Source of the DNA: Acidimicrobiales bacterium
GTDB lineage: Bacteria; Actinomycetota; Acidimicrobiia; Acidimicrobiales; AC-9
Reading direction: 5' to 3'
Length of the DNA: 64,000 bases
Assembly: GCA_036270875.1 (NCBI GenBank)
Contig: DATBBR010000074.1
Location: forward strand, 1,040-65,039
The position numbers were made by a program, and so were the translations under genes. Below the pieces are notes generated by a model that did not search any database, was not told the origin of the DNA, and worked only from the letters and a program-made list of their open reading frames with translations. Below are positions 3-63,895 of the stretch, one piece after another. Numbering within the stretch: position 1 is the stretch's first letter; the number at the start of each line of letters is the position of its first letter.

Positions 3-380
3 CGGTGTCTCGACATGAGCGTCGAGTACGCCAAGGAGCGGGTGCAGTTCGGCCGCCCCATCGGCAGCTTTCAGGCCATCAAGCACAAGTGCGCCGACAT
101 GCTTCTCGAGGTCGAGTCGGCCAAGTCAGCGGCCTACTACGCCGGATGGGCCGCGGCCGAGAGCTCTGACGAGCTGCCCGTGGTGGCCAGCCTGGCCAAG
201 GCCTACTGCTCTGACGCCTACTTCCACGCCGCCGCCGAGAACATCCAGATCCACGGCGGCATCGGGTTCACCTGGGAGCACGACGCCCATCTGTACTTCA
301 AGCGGGCCAAGTCCTCCGAGCTGCTCCTCGGCGATCCGACCTACCACCGGGAGCTGCTCGCCCAGCGCATCGGCCTCTGA
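3..380 (+). CDS. Acyl-CoA dehydrogenase, C-terminal part (gene starts before the window)
   Basis: EYAKERVQFGRPIGSFQAIKHKCADM and IQIHGGIGFTWEHDAHLYFKRA are acyl-CoA dehydrogenase C-terminal motifs; the frame is open to the window edge. Confidence 0.9.
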   Translation, partial: RCLDMSVEYAKERVQFGRPIGSFQAIKHKCADMLLEVESAKSAAYYAGWAAAESSDELPVVASLAKAYCSDAYFHAAAENIQIHGGIGFTWEHDAHLYFKRAKSSELLLGDPTYHRELLAQRIGL

Positions 381-391
381 GCCAGCCTCGC

Positions 392-411
392 CCGACGCCG
401 GGCGGCGTCGG
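392..411 (+). terminator. GC-rich hairpin after the acyl-CoA dehydrogenase stop
   Basis: ccgacgcc-gggc-ggcgtcgg, 8-bp stem; no U-tract. Confidence 0.35.
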
Positions 412-434
412 CGCGTGACTAACCTGGCTCGGTC

Positions 435-893
435 ATGGTCACTGTCGTGCTGGTGATCGTGGCCGCGGTGCTCGTGGCGGCTCTGGTGGCGACGGCGGCC
501 ACCGTCACCAGGCAGACCGAGCGGCGACGGCCCTCAACGCGGCGGCGCGCACAAGGGCGGCGGGCCGTCGATCAGGATGTGGTGGCGTCGTGGGTGACGC
601 GTCACCTGCCGTTCGAGGTCAGCGAGCGGCTCAGCCCCCAGGACGTACGCCAGATCATCGACTGGAACCTCGAGTTCTTCCGCTCCCGCACCACCTCGGG
701 TAACGGCCACTCGGCCAGCGCCGAAGCACCGATCGTGGTCGCCGGGGCCGAGACCGTCGACTACGTCCTGGGGCGGGCCGACGCGGTGGGGACCTCGTAC
801 ACACCCGCCCAGGTGCACGCCGTCCTGGCCGCCCAGATGAGCTACCTGCAGTCCATCGGGGCCATCGGCGAGGATCCGCCGGAGTCTCGTTGA
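435..893 (+). CDS. Hypothetical protein with an N-terminal transmembrane helix
   Basis: 152-aa ORF with hydrophobic N-terminus VTVVLVIVAAVLVAALVATAA that fills the gap between neighbours; family not recognised. Confidence 0.7.
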   Translation: MVTVVLVIVAAVLVAALVATAATVTRQTERRRPSTRRRAQGRRAVDQDVVASWVTRHLPFEVSERLSPQDVRQIIDWNLEFFRSRTTSGNGHSASAEAPIVVAGAETVDYVLGRADAVGTSYTPAQVHAVLAAQMSYLQSIGAIGEDPPESR

Positions 894-906
894 GCGGGCC
901 TGGCGC

Positions 907-912
907 GATACT
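907..912 (+). promoter_or_regulatory. Candidate -10 element of a leaderless transcript
   Basis: GATACT 6 nt before the GTG at 919, with no Shine-Dalgarno (SD) sequence. Confidence 0.4.
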
Positions 913-918
913 GAATCG

Positions 919-1368
919 GTGGCGTCGACACCAGATCGGGGCTCGGGAGAGGGTCGGCTGCGGGCCTCGGACGCCGATCGGGACCGGGTGGCCGCCGTGC
1001 TGCGGCAGCACTGCTCCGCCGGACGGCTGACTTTCGAGGAGCTCTCCGAACGGCTGGGGCAGGTCTACCAGGCTCGTACCCTCGACCAGCTGTTCTCCCT
1101 CACCAACGACCTGCCAGATCCGGAGCCCCACCCGCACGTGGGTGAGTACCTCCCCCAGCCACGATCGGTCGTTCCGGCGAGACGGCGCGCCGTGGCCGTC
1201 GACGCGGTGACGTACGCCGTGATCAGCGCCGTGCTGGTGGCCGTGTGGGCCGTGGCGGGAGGGGGCTACTTCTGGCCGATCTGGCCGATCGTCATCTGGG
1301 GGGTAGCCCTCGCCGTGCACGCGGTCAGCGTGTTTCGGCGACCAGGTGGCGACAGCGGCAGCGCGTGA
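919..1368 (+). CDS. DUF1707 (SHOCT-like) plus 2TM domain membrane protein
   Basis: RLRASDADRDRVAAVLRQHCSAGRLTFEELSERL...ARTLDQL is the DUF1707 pattern; C-terminal WAVAGGGYFWPIWPIVIWGVALAVHA is the 2TM pattern. Confidence 0.85.
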   Translation: MASTPDRGSGEGRLRASDADRDRVAAVLRQHCSAGRLTFEELSERLGQVYQARTLDQLFSLTNDLPDPEPHPHVGEYLPQPRSVVPARRRAVAVDAVTYAVISAVLVAVWAVAGGGYFWPIWPIVIWGVALAVHAVSVFRRPGGDSGSA

Positions 1369-1448
1369 CGGATATCGGCGTGGAAATGCCTCCGCTGTGC
1401 CCGTCCGTCCGTATAGCCTGTTGCCACCAGAGAAAGGAGGTGGTCCAA

Positions 1449-1493
1449 CTGAACTGTCAAACCGCAGGGACCCTGGAGGTGGCTGGCCGCTAG
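1449..1493 (+). CDS. Putative 14-aa small peptide (L/M)NCQTAGTLEVAGR with CTG start
   Basis: Very strong SD (AGAAAGGAGG 1431-1440) 8 nt before CTG; TAG at 1491-1493; non-canonical start, so speculative. Confidence 0.3.
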   Translation: MNCQTAGTLEVAGR

Positions 1494-1608
1494 GGCGGCC
1501 GCTGGACCACCTGGTGAATCTCAGCCAGACACCGCTCGGCGAGGCGGTCGGGAGCCGGTCCCACCTGATGTCGTAGGTCCTCGTCGGGTCCTTTCCAGCA
1601 GTTTCGTC

Positions 1609-1634
1609 CCGGGGGGCGCTTCGGCGCCCCCCGG
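1609..1634 (+). terminator. Strong stem-loop, probable terminator or 3' stabiliser
   Basis: ccggggggcgc-ttcg-gcgccccccgg: perfect 11-bp stem with a C(UUCG)G loop. Confidence 0.65.
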
Positions 1635-1676
1635 AACTCTGTCCGGGCCAGGTTGGCTCCCGATTGCCAGGGGTAG

Positions 1677-2444
1677 GTGCGAGTCGTGCAGTTGGACATA
1701 CGCAGCGGTGGGCTCACGCTGCGTGGGTATCTGGTGCGACCCGACCTCGAGCCGGATCAGTCCTGCGGGTTGCTCGTCGTGTGCCACGGCTTTCCGGCCG
1801 GTCCGAAGGGAGCGGCGGGCGCCGGTCACACCTACCCCCAGCTCGCCGACCGGTTGACGGCGGAGGCCGGGTGGGCGGTCCTGACGTTCAACTTCCGGGG
1901 TACGGGGGAGTCCGAGGGCGACTTCTCCCTCGGTGGCTGGATGGACGATCTCAGGGCCGTGGTCGACCACGCCCTCGGTCTGGCCCATATCCGTGGCGTG
2001 TGGCTGGCCGGGTTCAGCACGGGCGGTTCGCTCGCCCTGTGCGGGGCGGGCGAAGACGAGCGGGTCCGCGGCGTCGCCGCCCTGGCCGCTCCGTCTGACT
2101 TCTCGCATTGGGCCGCCGCTCCCGATCGCCTCCTGGCTGAAGCCGGTGACCTCGGGGTGGTGCGTAGCGCTGGTTTCCCCGACGACCCCGATGCCTGGGC
2201 GAGAGAGCTCGACGAGCTTCGGCCGCTCGCGCTGGTGGGGAAGGTGCCGCCCCGGCCTCTGCTGATCGTGCACGGCGGGGACGACACGGTCGTTCCCCTG
2301 GTGGAGGCGCGGGCCCTCGACGATGCCGCCGACGGTCGGGGAGAGCTGCGGGTGCTCTCCGGAGCGGGTCACCGCCTGCGCCACGATCCTCGGGCCATCG
2401 CCGTCCTGCTGGGGTGGCTCGAGCGCCAGGGCGAGGGGGCCTGA
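1677..2444 (+). CDS. Alpha/beta-fold hydrolase
   Basis: CHGF oxyanion motif, FNFRGTGESEGDF, nucleophile elbow GFSTGG, HGGDDTVV Asp and GAGH His. Confidence 0.88.
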   Translation: MRVVQLDIRSGGLTLRGYLVRPDLEPDQSCGLLVVCHGFPAGPKGAAGAGHTYPQLADRLTAEAGWAVLTFNFRGTGESEGDFSLGGWMDDLRAVVDHALGLAHIRGVWLAGFSTGGSLALCGAGEDERVRGVAALAAPSDFSHWAAAPDRLLAEAGDLGVVRSAGFPDDPDAWARELDELRPLALVGKVPPRPLLIVHGGDDTVVPLVEARALDDAADGRGELRVLSGAGHRLRHDPRAIAVLLGWLERQGEGA

Positions 2445-2447
2445 GCC

Positions 2448-3119
2448 TCACCCGTCGTGGCGTCCGACGCCGGCCAGTGCGTCCTCCAGCGCGCCGCGCA
2501 GAGCCCGGGCCCGGCCCTCGGGATCGGCGGCCTCGGTCAGGAAGCGAACGACCACGAAGCGGCGACCGCCAGCCTCCACCATTGGCCCCACCGTCTCCGG
2601 CGAGACGCCGCCGGTGACGAAGAAGGGTAGGCCGGTGCTGGCCGCCACATGGGACACGTACCCCAGCCCGGTGCCGGCCCGCCCCGGCTTGGTCGGTGTG
2701 GGCGTGACGGGCCCGGCCGACAGGTAGTCGACCGGCTCGCGGTCGGCGGCCTCGAGCTGGGCGGGACCGTGCGTCGACAGCCCGACGAGGGCGTCGGGAC
2801 CCATGATCCGTCGGGCGAGGGTGGGCGGGGCGTCCTCCTGGCCCACGTGGACACCGTCGGCTCCGAGCTCGACGGCGAGGTCCGGCCGGTCGTTGAGCAC
2901 GAAGGGAACGTTGTGGTCGCGGCACACCTCGAGGGCGAGGCGGGCGCGCGCCATCAGCGGTCGCGCCTCGAGCGACTTCTCCCGCAGCTGGACGAGGTCG
3001 ACGCCGCCGCGGATGCAGGCGGCCAGGAAGCTGGTGAGGTCTGGGCGATCGGGGCAGCACAGATAGAGGCGGCGTCCGTCGAGGCGTTGGCGCGCCGTTG
3101 CGGTGATGACGCCCGTCAG
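2448..3119 (-). CDS. thiE: Thiamine-phosphate synthase (start uncertain)
   Basis: GGVDLVQLREK, FVLNDRPDLAVELGADGVHVGQED, GLSTH, GPVTPTPTKPG, FFVTGGV; no ATG/GTG/TTG at the domain start, and the CTG at 3119 overlaps the upstream stop. Confidence 0.9.
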   Translation of the reverse strand: MTGVITATARQRLDGRRLYLCCPDRPDLTSFLAACIRGGVDLVQLREKSLEARPLMARARLALEVCRDHNVPFVLNDRPDLAVELGADGVHVGQEDAPPTLARRIMGPDALVGLSTHGPAQLEAADREPVDYLSAGPVTPTPTKPGRAGTGLGYVSHVAASTGLPFFVTGGVSPETVGPMVEAGGRRFVVVRFLTEAADPEGRARALRGALEDALAGVGRHDG

Positions 3120-62741: not shown

Positions 62742-63895
62742 CCGATACCGTGCGGCTCAGCCTCGACGTCAGCGCCGTGCCGGCCGAGCCGGCGGGAGCA
62801 GGCCGGTACACGCTCGGGTTGGCCGCCGCCCTGGCCGATCGACGCGACGTCGAGCTGACGCTGGTATCGAGGTCGGAGGACGCCGAGCGTTGGCGGGACC
62901 TGGCACCGCATGCTGCCGTGGAGGCGGTGGCACCCGCCGCCCGGCCGCTGCGCCTGGCCTGGGAGCAGACCCGGCTGCCGATGCGTTTGCGCCGGCTCCC
63001 CGTCGATGTCCACCACGGCCCCCACTACACGATGCCGGAGGCGTCGTCGATGCCGCGCGTCGTGACCATTCACGACCTGACGTTCTTCGACCATCCCGAG
63101 TGGCATCGTCGCACGCGGGTCCCGTTCTTCCGCCGGGCCATCCGGGTGGCGGCCCGCCACGCCGAGGCGTTGGTGTGCGTGAGCGCCCGCACCGCTGAGC
63201 GCCTGGCGGAGATCAGCCCCCCGTCGGGACCGGTGTTCGTCGTGCCGCATGGCGTCGATCACGAGCGCTTCCGCCCCGACGAGCCCCAGCCTGGTGCCGA
63301 CAGGGCGGCTCTGACCGGCCTTGGGATCACCGGCGCCTACGTGGCCTTCGTCGGAACACTCGAGCCCCGCAAGGACGTGCCGACACTGGTGCGCGCCTTC
63401 GACCGAATGTGCGGGGCCCACCCGGGGCTCAGCCTCGTCCTGGCCGGCGGAGCCGGCTGGGGGGCCGTGGCAGTCGACCGCGCGGTCGCCGAGTCCCGCG
63501 ACCCCGACCGAATCGTGCGCGCCGGCTACGTCGCCGACGCCGACGTCGCCGCCCTGCTGCGGCAGGCAGCCGCCGTCGCCTATCCGTCTCTGGAGGAGGG
63601 CTTCGGGCTTCCGGCGCTGGAGGCGCTGGCATGCGGCGCCCCGCTGGTCACGACCACCGGCTCCGCCATGCAGGAGGTGGTCCAGGGGGCCGCGGTCCTG
63701 GTCACCCCGGGCGACGTGGACGGGCTGGCCGGTGCCCTCGATCTCCTCGTGCGCCGCGACGACGGGTTGCCCACCCGGCGGACGCGGGGGCTGGCCGTGG
63801 CCGCCCGGCACAACTGGGAGGCCAGCGCCGCCGGCCACCTGGACGCCTATCGAGCGGCGATCGCGTCCGGAAAGGGCCCCAGAGAGCCCGACTAG
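62738..63895 (+). CDS. GT4 (GT-B) glycosyltransferase
   Basis: VTIHDLTF, GTLEPRKD, PSLEEGFGLPALEAL; GTGA overlap. Confidence 0.9.
   Translation: MTDTVRLSLDVSAVPAEPAGAGRYTLGLAAALADRRDVELTLVSRSEDAERWRDLAPHAAVEAVAPAARPLRLAWEQTRLPMRLRRLPVDVHHGPHYTMPEASSMPRVVTIHDLTFFDHPEWHRRTRVPFFRRAIRVAARHAEALVCVSARTAERLAEISPPSGPVFVVPHGVDHERFRPDEPQPGADRAALTGLGITGAYVAFVGTLEPRKDVPTLVRAFDRMCGAHPGLSLVLAGGAGWGAVAVDRAVAESRDPDRIVRAGYVADADVAALLRQAAAVAYPSLEEGFGLPALEALACGAPLVTTTGSAMQEVVQGAAVLVTPGDVDGLAGALDLLVRRDDGLPTRRTRGLAVAARHNWEASAAGHLDAYRAAIASGKGPREPD

Follow-up and report, generated by a model that had tools for sequence, protein, structure and literature searches.

The stretch analysed here, called the window, is a 64,000-nucleotide (64-kb) segment of contig DATBBR010000074.1 from an Acidimicrobiales bacterium (assembly GCA_036270875.1). 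Near its beginning, a gap of 308 nucleotides (nt) between two + strand genes (919-1368 and 1677-2444) holds a long Shine–Dalgarno (SD) sequence followed by a mini open reading frame (mini-ORF), which had been flagged in an earlier note made from the letters alone. The analysis reported below identified this site as part of a small RNA (sRNA) of the Ms_IGR-5 family and gave a slight preference to the view that its conserved core is a docking site for ribosomes in which the encoded peptide does not matter.

Direct reading of the letters located AGAAAGGAGGTGGTCCA at 1431-1447 (+), the CTG start at 1449-1451 and the TAG stop at 1491-1493, the mini-ORF being translated as LNCQTAGTLEVAGR. The sequence TGGACCACCT at 1503-1512 was the exact reverse complement of 1438-1447 (inverted repeat I3, 10 nt, 100%). 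All base-level statements of the earlier note, namely the 17-nt complement of the 16S rRNA tail, the CTG, the frame ending in TAG and the perfectly complementary downstream anti-SD, were thus correct. The canonical 3' tail of actinobacterial 16S rRNA is GGAUCACCUCCUUUCU. With this tail, which is the canonical actinobacterial one and may not be the host's own, the SD region formed 16 contiguous base pairs (-29.9 kcal/mol). When up to three mismatches were allowed, the 17-mer occurred twice in the window against 0.09 expected, and a chance origin of the match is excluded. The second occurrence, ATGCAGGAGGTGGTCCA at 63668-63684 with 3 mismatches, lay inside a coding region (..AMQEVVQGAAV..) and was dismissed as unrelated to the sRNA. 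The frame of the mini-ORF is open upstream as far as 1245, and its length of 14 codons rests on CTG being taken as the start; CTG was accepted because homologues carry ATG, GTG, TTG or CTG at the same position. Two further repeats were found in the gap: a second SD-like copy, GGAGGTGG, at 1475-1482 (direct repeat D3), and a GC hairpin with a UUCG loop at 1606-1637 (inverted repeat I1, 14 nt). Scans of the window revealed no tRNA or tmRNA gene, and simple scans found neither a consensus sigma-70 promoter nor a U-tract terminator, the hairpin at 1606-1637 not being called by the terminator scan. The features assigned to the locus are as follows; H1, H2, LR and Pb denote helices, and types A and B are the two forms of the family described below.

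1414..1419, + strand: -10-like hexamer TAGCCT (TANNNT), with spacing kept in relatives and a predicted transcription start at about A1426.
About 1426..1645, + strand: predicted sRNA gene of about 215 nt, the type B (Acidimicrobiia) variant of the Ms_IGR-5 family, based on the RF02471 match, homologue alignments and metatranscriptome contigs.
1427..1430, + strand: 5' strand CCAG of H1, partner CUGG at 1473-1476, from covariation.
1431..1447, + strand: SD1, AGAAAGGAGGUGGUCCA, the 17-nt complement of the 16S 3' tail, of which 1431-1441 is a bulge; from tail pairing and conservation.
1442..1446, + strand: 5' strand GGUCC of H2, partner GGACC at 1468-1472, also the 3' end of the extended SD; from covariation.
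1449..1493, + strand: mini-ORF with CTG, 14 sense codons and TAG at 1491-1493, its start lying in the apical loop of H2; from homologue frames.
1475..1482, + strand: SD2, GGAGGUGG, inside the ORF; from direct repeat D3.
1478..1486, + strand: 5' strand GGUGGCUGG of LR, partner CCAGACACC at 1525-1533, from covariation across subtypes.
1488..1493, + strand: 5' strand CGCUAG of Pb including the stop codon, partner CUGGUG at 1511-1516, from pairing counts.
1503..1512, + strand: anti-SD UGGACCACCU in the apical region of Pb, resembling the 16S sequence CUGGAUCACCU; from inverted repeat I3.
1516..1524, + strand: conserved unpaired GAAUC(C) motif between Pb and the 3' strand of LR, seen as G(C/U)GAAU(C/U)CC in types A and B.
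1534..1588, + strand: hairpin or hairpins of the 3' domain, with G1558-U1559-C1560 invariant within GGUCCC; from alignment columns.
1589..1596, + strand: UCCUUUCC, complementary to GAAAGGA of SD1, from the minimum free energy (MFE) fold of 1426-1600.
1606..1637, + strand: GC-rich hairpin with a UUCG loop, a likely intrinsic terminator with a weak U-tract in the window copy; from inverted repeat I1.
1677..2444, + strand: alpha/beta-hydrolase gene (Pfam Abhydrolase_1, Hydrolase_4).

At the Rfam gathering thresholds, no match was obtained in the window; the gathering score of RF02471 (Ms_IGR-5) is 45 bits, and the window copy falls below it. In an E-value scan of 1350-1720, the full RF02471 model (positions 1-184) aligned with 1426-1595 (+) at 37.5 bits (E 3.4e-7). 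Under the same model, control loci of type A scored 62-190 bits and the nearest type B relative among the matches listed, L005, scored 48.8, above the cut-off, while L009, L018, L047, L122 and L154 fell under it. The window copy also carried the conserved blocks of Ms_IGR-5 in the same order: the 5' leader (ACAC/ACCA), GGAAGGAGGUGGUCC, GAGGUGGCUG..CGCUAG, GAAUCC, xCACC and the GUCC hairpin. The helix containing the stop codon and the GAAUCC loop are common to both, Ms_IGR-5 is a stand-alone gene, as the window copy probably is, and the secondary structure is kept by compensatory changes across the types (CUGC/GCAG vs CUGG/CCAG). The window RNA is thus almost certainly homologous to Ms_IGR-5; the 45-bit cut-off is an operational one, and the window copy is a divergent homologue, clear as such, that the curated model narrowly missed. 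Against the 12 codons of Ms_IGR-5 it has 14, beginning with CTG; the CUGG/CCAG covariation replaces Ala by Gly, and a split anti-SD (1503-1512 and 1590-1595) and a separate GC terminator are present in addition.

The M. smegmatis representative, IGR-5, is the validated but uncharacterised sRNA ncMSMEG15794c encoded between MSMEG_5794 and MSMEG_5795 (Li et al. 2013), and it is NAD-capped with an A start (bioRxiv 10.1101/2021.12.14.472595). Expression of the family has been validated in M. smegmatis, S. lividans and S. avermitilis. The literature searched treated Ms_IGR-5 only as an sRNA without known function and mentioned neither the mini-ORF nor the whole-tail SD; searches under ncRv0812-type names, and for Rv0812/Rv0813c with small RNA, returned nothing useful. 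The earlier reader had not recognised the element as a member of a named sRNA family. What is added here is the mini-ORF and the proposed ribosome-docking core of a known family, together with the recognition of the window copy as a divergent variant below the cut-off.

Homologues were collected in two scans. In the first, one genome per species was searched for AAGGAGG-N25-45-GAGGTNGCNGSNCGNTRR, with the start codon unconstrained, the stop required as T[AG][AG] and the third base of the Val codon free; at least 120 matches were listed, of which 117 were clearly the same element. In the second, metagenome contigs were searched with no constraint beyond GAGGTGGCYG downstream and with the stop left free, giving 120 further loci. 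The total over both scans was at least 227, and the counts below refer to unique SD-to-stop cores (103 from genomes, 110 from metagenomes). Carriers in the genome scan included Nocardioides, Mycobacterium, Kitasatospora/Streptomyces, Rhodococcus, Nocardia, Cellulomonas, Kineococcus, many Acidimicrobiia and Solirubrobacterales/Conexibacter. The members fell into two types: type A of Actinomycetes, with 12 codons (e.g. M-NSSRTR-EVAAR), and type B of Acidimicrobiia and Thermoleophilia, including the window copy, with 14-15 codons ending in ...GT(L/S)EVAGR.

As revealed by these collections, the apparatus for initiation, reading and termination is conserved. Among the genome matches listed, every true member carried AAGGAGGTG, of which the pattern required AAGGAGG only; an in-frame NTG lay 5-13 nt past GGAGG in 98 of the 103 cores, compared with 2 and 8 in the other frames, and four further cores had ATC, ATT or ATA at the start position. 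No core among these matches had an in-frame internal stop (0/103), whereas the other two frames were interrupted in 95 and 92. Likewise among the matches listed, the start codons were ATG (35), TTG (29), CTG (20) and GTG (14), with CTG confined to type B, so that the CTG of the window is typical for its clade. The ORF spanned 11-15 codons among the listed genome matches, in which all three stop codons were used, and 11-19 codons in the metagenome set. Where the stop had been left free, the first in-frame stop was placed exactly five codons after GAG in 105 of the 110 metagenome cores, and an in-frame start was present in 106 of them. Frame and SD spacing, whose loss in homologues the earlier note had held to be fatal to its proposal, were therefore both strongly conserved, and that objection falls away.

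The amino acids behaved otherwise. The earlier note had suggested checking conservation of the peptide end EVAxR-stop; across the metagenome cores this motif dissolved, the two codons before the stop reading DC, VS, ET, GR, VR, AR, AS, ER, DA and others. The Val codon, on the other hand, was GUG in all 117 true members among the listed genome matches even though its third base was unconstrained. In short, start, frame, length and stop position are conserved, and the amino acids are not. These observations indicate with good confidence that ribosome engagement, or translation of the mini-ORF, is under selection, and they make it likely, though with somewhat less assurance, that the peptide is not the effector.

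Several variants stood apart in this collection. The only genome member without an in-frame start among the matches listed was L053 (Ilumatobacteraceae metagenome-assembled genome (MAG), about 1705-1766, minus strand), in which a 1-nt insertion, GGGACTCCTGGAGG, shifts the frame; this may be a sequencing error in the MAG, a decaying copy, or a copy dispensing with translation. A metagenome subtype (L122, L124, L127, L137, L144) ends in EVADC-stop and has the 5' leader AUCACUG; in place of the long-range LR helix, a local hairpin (GGAGGUGGCCGAC..GUCGAGCCUCC) closes its SD2 by means of a true CCUCC anti-SD that immediately follows the stop, and the subtype may be a separate lineage, possibly outside Actinomycetota. 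Another (L154, L161, L169, L174, L181) ends in EVAET-stop, pairs CUGAG/CUCAG in LR and GCAG/CUGC in H1, and has several Cys codons in the variable part (e.g. MNDDKCTVC in the L154 type). Throughout the family, the loop codons after the start (1452-1466 in the window) are AT-rich and rare in high-GC genomes (AAT, TCT, AGT, AGG and TTA in mycobacteria), and the start codon is mostly followed by A (NTGA), which may either slow the ribosome or only keep the loop unpaired.

The secondary structure was examined with two alignments, A1 (type B, 44 sequences) and A2 (type A, 70 sequences). Since the RNAalifold consensus on the raw type B alignment was poor, helices were set by eye and then pair-counted against 500 shuffles and slid controls. 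For H1, H2, LR and Pb taken together, 92.8% of the cells were paired in type B (slid controls, 35-52%) and 94.4% in type A (slid controls, 26-46%). Cells changed on both sides numbered 49 in type B against 17.2 ± 3.6 after shuffling, and 36 in type A against 10.8 ± 2.5; in neither case did any of the 500 shuffles reach the observed value. In H1, column pair 8:58 of A1 was AU in 33 sequences and GC in 10, and 9:57 was GC in 29, AU in 13 and UA in 1, with the strand variants CCAG/CUGG, CCGA/UCGG, CCAA/UUGG and CCGU/ACGG, and CACG/CGUG and CACA/UGUG in type A. H2 was paired in 98% of the cells in both alignments, and in type A GAUCC was offset by GGAU (pair 23:49 being GC in 49, AU in 14 and GU in 3). 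LR, paired in 97.5% of the cells in A2, appeared as CUGC/GCAG in type A, CUGG/CCAG in type B, CCGG/CCGG, and, in metagenomes, CUGAG/CUCAG and CCGAG/CUCGG. The inner four pairs of Pb, which corresponds to the Rfam consensus helix ccGCuaGC/GCugGCg, were paired in 98% of the cells in A1 and 85.5% in A2, with GC/GU and UG/UA exchanges. In the 3' domain, columns G137, T138 and C139 were invariant in A1, and type A has the same GUCC motif. LR and Pb contain G-U pairs, which the opposite strand would turn into A-C mismatches, and this supports + as the sense strand. The GGUGGU/GCUGCC helix drawn by Rfam was rejected: it showed no covariation and was broken in 18 GAUCC variants, in which H2 was compensated.

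In this covariation-supported fold, H1 and H2 are separated by an 11-nt bulge, AGAAAGGAGGU (1431-1441). The apical loop of H2 contains the start codon, and the remainder of the ORF runs through the 3' strands of H2 and H1 and then the 5' strands of LR and Pb. The GGAGG of SD2 ends 8 nt before the last sense codon, a spacing equal to that from SD1 to the start. The codons are accordingly tied up in helices. Which residue precedes GAG (Leu, Ser, Thr, Pro, Arg or Cys) is decided by the pairing of its codon with the 5' end, and the Ala/Gly difference between EVAAR and EVAGR arises from the covariation of LR. Given these helix constraints and the fixed GUG, the apparent peptide motif is therefore a by-product of constraints on the RNA.

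To evaluate the proposed translational lock, the pairing between SD and downstream anti-SD was treated in the same way. On A1, the helix 1438-1447/1503-1512 was pairable in 88.5% of the cells compared with 22-69% in slid controls, with 0 both-side changes, equal to shuffles; this absence of a covariation signal comes from the SD side being nearly invariant. The duplex energy between the SD and the downstream segment averaged -18.3 kcal/mol in type B against -16.1 kcal/mol after shuffling, and was -19.2 kcal/mol in the window. The sequence CUGGACCACCUG was found 8-10 nt past the stop in about 12 Acidimicrobiia including the window. As a feature of the whole family, the anti-SD was rejected: the duplex energies of type A equalled those of shuffles (-17.7 vs -17.2 kcal/mol), and type A is without an equivalent. 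The MFE of the window RNA 1426-1600 was -77.0 kcal/mol, and in that structure GAAAGGAGGUGGUCCA is sequestered by two segments through the pairs GAAAGG (1432-1437)/CCUUUC (1590-1595) and AGGUGGUCCA/UGGACCACCU, which together make up a split mimic of the 16S tail. In the window, GGAGG had a predicted probability of 0.57 of being unpaired when the RNA ended at the stop codon, and of 0.02 once the 3' domain was included; the means fell from 0.47 to 0.23 in type B and from 0.55 to 0.38 in type A. The motif at 1589-1596 is kept as CCUUUCCAGC in many Acidimicrobiia. The CCUUUC/GAAAGG helix, likewise considered as a family feature, was discarded with 69% of the cells paired on A1, no better than slid controls. 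By these folding predictions, the lock is real for the window sequence and its near relatives within Acidimicrobiia, as an add-on of one clade and not the core design of the family. The translational locking suggested in the earlier note consequently held for the window, where the MFE structure hides the whole SD, but did not extend to the copies of Actinomycetes and drew no support from covariation.

The element also has the look of a gene of its own. Of 118 copies among the matches listed, 105 had a TANNNT hexamer beginning 19-21 nt ahead of AAGGAGG. Transcription was predicted to start near A1426, since TAGCCT occupies 1414-1419 and both the Rfam match and H1 begin there; the A is in keeping with IGR-5 of M. 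smegmatis, which is NAD-capped and likewise begins with A. Relatives have an equivalent GC hairpin, several with U-runs after it, and the 3' end of the sRNA was placed by the hairpin at 1606-1637. The window DNA is of soil metagenome origin. In soil metatranscriptome assemblies, many short contigs fell on 1467-1538, with a summed assembler word depth, which is not a measure of expression, of up to 6590 in one run and near 0 on the flanking genes; near-identical contigs of 151-175 nt spanned 1436/1443 to 1593/1596. Together they show that the family is transcribed in soil, abundantly and as a discrete RNA. Because the neighbours differ between clades, the element was regarded as probably a stand-alone gene. 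Outside Acidimicrobiia, they were an ABC transporter in Nocardioides, GyrA upstream in Solirubrobacterales, and in mycobacteria a PabC-like gene upstream with a convergent Rv0813c-like gene downstream.

Taken as a whole, we hold it somewhat more probable than the sum of its rivals that 1431-1512 is the ribosome-docking module of a stand-alone, structured sRNA of about 215 nt with its own predicted promoter and terminator, the mini-ORF being neither a peptide nor a toxin gene. The suggestion in the earlier note that the RNA captures 30S subunits agrees with this interpretation. Under it, the reading frame would be a track for the ribosome that encodes no working peptide. A 30S subunit would dock on the bulged SD, and the 16S tail would then invade the GGUCC strand of H2; complementarity reaching far past a normal SD is proposed to exist because the tail displaces that strand. 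Initiation would take place at a possibly weak start codon (CTG in the window), and translation of a few codons would unzip H2, H1, LR and Pb and so remodel the conserved 3' domain. As a rule, SD2 (GGAGGUGG) pairs with a CCACC-like partner. It may keep hold of a ribosome that is terminating, or it may instead act as an anti-anti-SD towards the CCACC element. In the window and related Acidimicrobiia, UGGACCACCU (1503-1512) and CCUUUC (1590-1595) would mimic the 16S tail and sequester the SD in the finished RNA, and access of ribosomes would then be limited to the nascent RNA or need an opening event.

Several points weigh against this interpretation. The steps of invasion and unzipping are inferred, and such a toehold-and-unzipping mechanism is offered only tentatively, as one that may well prove wrong. 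In the window the covariation-supported open fold reached -64.7 kcal/mol, and by nearest-neighbour energies the closed state comes out ahead by about 12 kcal/mol. The start codon there, CTG, is a weak initiator, and translation and 30S binding of this copy are deduced from its sequence. Because GAGGTGGC and a portion of the SD were prescribed in both scan patterns, their invariance owes something to the search itself. NTG often has A as its next base, and part of the start-codon signal could therefore stem from a conserved UGA motif in the loop; the ATH exceptions and the open frame speak against this. The metatranscriptome contigs stem mostly from relatives, and what they provide is assembler word depth in place of expression. 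Significant ribosome-protected reads have been reported on MS_IGR-5 homologues in M. abscessus and M. smegmatis (PMC4974804), and the same study cautions that many non-coding RNAs show such reads.

Among other explanations, it is rather unlikely, yet deserving of attention, that the site is a 5' stabiliser only, in which the super-SD and mini-ORF park a ribosome against 5'-dependent decay by RNase J/RNase E while regulation lies wholly in the 3' domain, for instance in target pairing. As with STAB-SD (PMC4113751), the SD can pair with the 16S tail; it lies some 5 nt behind the predicted 5' end, the abundance in soil metatranscriptomes fits a stable RNA, and the peptide is not conserved. STAB-SD, however, needs no start, frame or stop, all three of which are conserved here; moreover, the ORF is interwoven with the covarying core helices and not placed in front of them, and the mature window RNA is predicted to hide the SD. 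That last prediction also counts against a pure decoy or sponge that ties up free 30S subunits or 16S tails and yields no productive translation, its start codon merely stabilising 30S-fMet-tRNA. Such a decoy would account for the 16-17 contiguous tail pairs (-29.9 kcal/mol), the tolerance of weak starts (CTG, ATH) and the high abundance of the family, but it has no need of an open frame of fixed length with a fixed stop, and stoichiometric titration of ribosomes would call for very high copy numbers; we consider it improbable. We give just as little credence to a cis-acting leader or attenuator of the alpha/beta-hydrolase, in which translation of the mini-ORF sets termination at 1606-1637 or exposure of the hydrolase ribosome-binding site. 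The layout does resemble a leader peptide followed by a terminator, gene order is conserved in Acidimicrobiia with 15 same-strand hydrolases downstream, and the I2 repeat (1543-1556/1655-1668) reaches just upstream of the hydrolase start. Outside Acidimicrobiia, though, the neighbours are unrelated or convergent, and the family is a validated independent sRNA; the mini-ORF contains no regulatory codon run or conserved arrest motif and its C-terminal residues vary, and metatranscriptome depth was about 0-2.4 on the hydrolase against hundreds to thousands on the element.

A true small-protein gene, whose 14-residue product would be a toxin, signal or ribosome-arrest effector with the anti-SD as a lock like that of type I toxins, appears quite improbable in spite of the strong SD, the conserved start, frame and stop, and the long-range sequestration of the SD in the window. 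Its N-terminal residues vary freely and its last two vary too; the TLEVAGR motif is encoded by covarying strands, with the Ala/Gly switch tracking CUGC/GCAG vs CUGG/CCAG; the invariant GUG codon of Val points to constraint at the RNA level; and a membrane toxin would need a longer and less polar peptide. No candidate antitoxin RNA was seen on the minus strand, where no dedicated search was made, and the peptide strings TLEVAGR, TREVAAR and TCEVAAR gave nothing relevant in the literature searched. The analogies to type I toxins and leader peptides drawn in the earlier note were accordingly set aside, the peptide being short, polar and variable, its conserved codons being covarying strands, and the neighbouring genes differing between clades; of that note, the observation is confirmed and the interpretation partly supported. 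Finally, a product of the minus strand or a relic of the 16S rRNA 3' end can practically be discounted. The reverse complement of the site, UGGACCACCUCCUUUCU, resembles the 16S tail by construction, and the minus-strand fold had a z-score of -2.4, but the -10 hexamer, start, stop, G-U helices and Rfam match are all on the + strand, no rRNA similarity extends past the tail, and Rfam found no rRNA in the window.

The element was also compared with known systems. The STAB-SD of B. thuringiensis cry3A has no ORF and no initiation, whereas the Ms_IGR-5-type element has a conserved start 5-13 nt past GGAGG and a module within the core fold. As in locked toxin mRNAs of the hok/tisB type, distant 3' pairing is predicted to hide the SD of the window RNA while the nascent RNA leaves it free; those mRNAs encode a conserved hydrophobic peptide, in contrast to the polar and variable LNCQTAGTLEVAGR, and the lock here is confined to one clade. 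Dual-function sRNAs (SgrS/SgrT, RNAIII/hld, SR1/SR1P) also combine an sRNA with a short translated ORF, but their peptides are conserved and active; in the present family, selection appears to act on translation alone. The Caulobacter RNA CC2171 (RF01867), whose consensus begins with GAAAGGAGGUGAUCCA and ends in a GC hairpin, matched the window weakly at 1424-1503 (18.5 bits, E 0.065; gathering score 75), a likeness limited to the SD and a hairpin. CC2171 is expressed and has no known function (bioRxiv 10.1101/2022.01.24.477521).

Very few sRNAs are conserved throughout Actinomycetota; Ms_IGR-5 is one of them, with carriers ranging from Mycobacterium and Streptomyces to Acidimicrobiia and Thermoleophilia. 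Reading its conserved core as a ribosome-docking mini-cistron, whose codons double as covarying helix strands, yields the testable hypothesis that its activity is gated by ribosome engagement, for which M. smegmatis and S. coelicolor are tractable hosts. The analysis also corrected the Rfam secondary structure, defined a divergent subfamily missed by the Rfam model, and provided a natural example of an SD presented in a bulge with extended tail pairing. More speculatively, and with considerable doubt, Ms_IGR-5 and its type B relatives, possibly along with CC2171-like RNAs elsewhere, might constitute a class of whole-tail ribosome-sensing RNAs. In these, a bulged toehold would receive free 30S subunits, a mini-ORF of irrelevant peptide sequence would turn the arrival of a ribosome into unfolding of the core, and SD2/CCACC, with the split tail mimic in some clades, would reset or lock the RNA, which would thereby measure or buffer free-ribosome or anti-SD capacity, e.g. 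in growth arrest.

With regard to the surroundings, the gene order in Acidimicrobiia was acyl-CoA dehydrogenase, a 152-residue membrane-anchored protein without Pfam domains, the element and the alpha/beta hydrolase (window 3-2444; L016, L080, L032, L044, L091 and others). By this synteny the window falls among Acidimicrobiia MAGs. The hydrolase was found on the same strand, a few hundred nt past the element, in 15 relatives (43-63% identity), and is a conserved neighbour only within Acidimicrobiia, where the element may additionally influence the hydrolase gene. In the window, the upstream neighbour at 919-1368 (+) is a DUF1707/2TM gene lying between the 152-residue protein gene and the sRNA; in most syntenic relatives the 152-residue protein gene is directly upstream of the sRNA. 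The inverted repeat I2 (14 nt, 86% complementary) joins 1543-1556 in the 3' domain of the sRNA with 1655-1668, just upstream of the hydrolase start (GTG 1677/1686), and could couple the fold of the sRNA to the hydrolase ribosome-binding site in Acidimicrobiia. Beyond the hydrolase gene, a ThiE-like frame at 2448-3119 of the window stays open far upstream, within a 382-residue ATG ORF on the minus strand.

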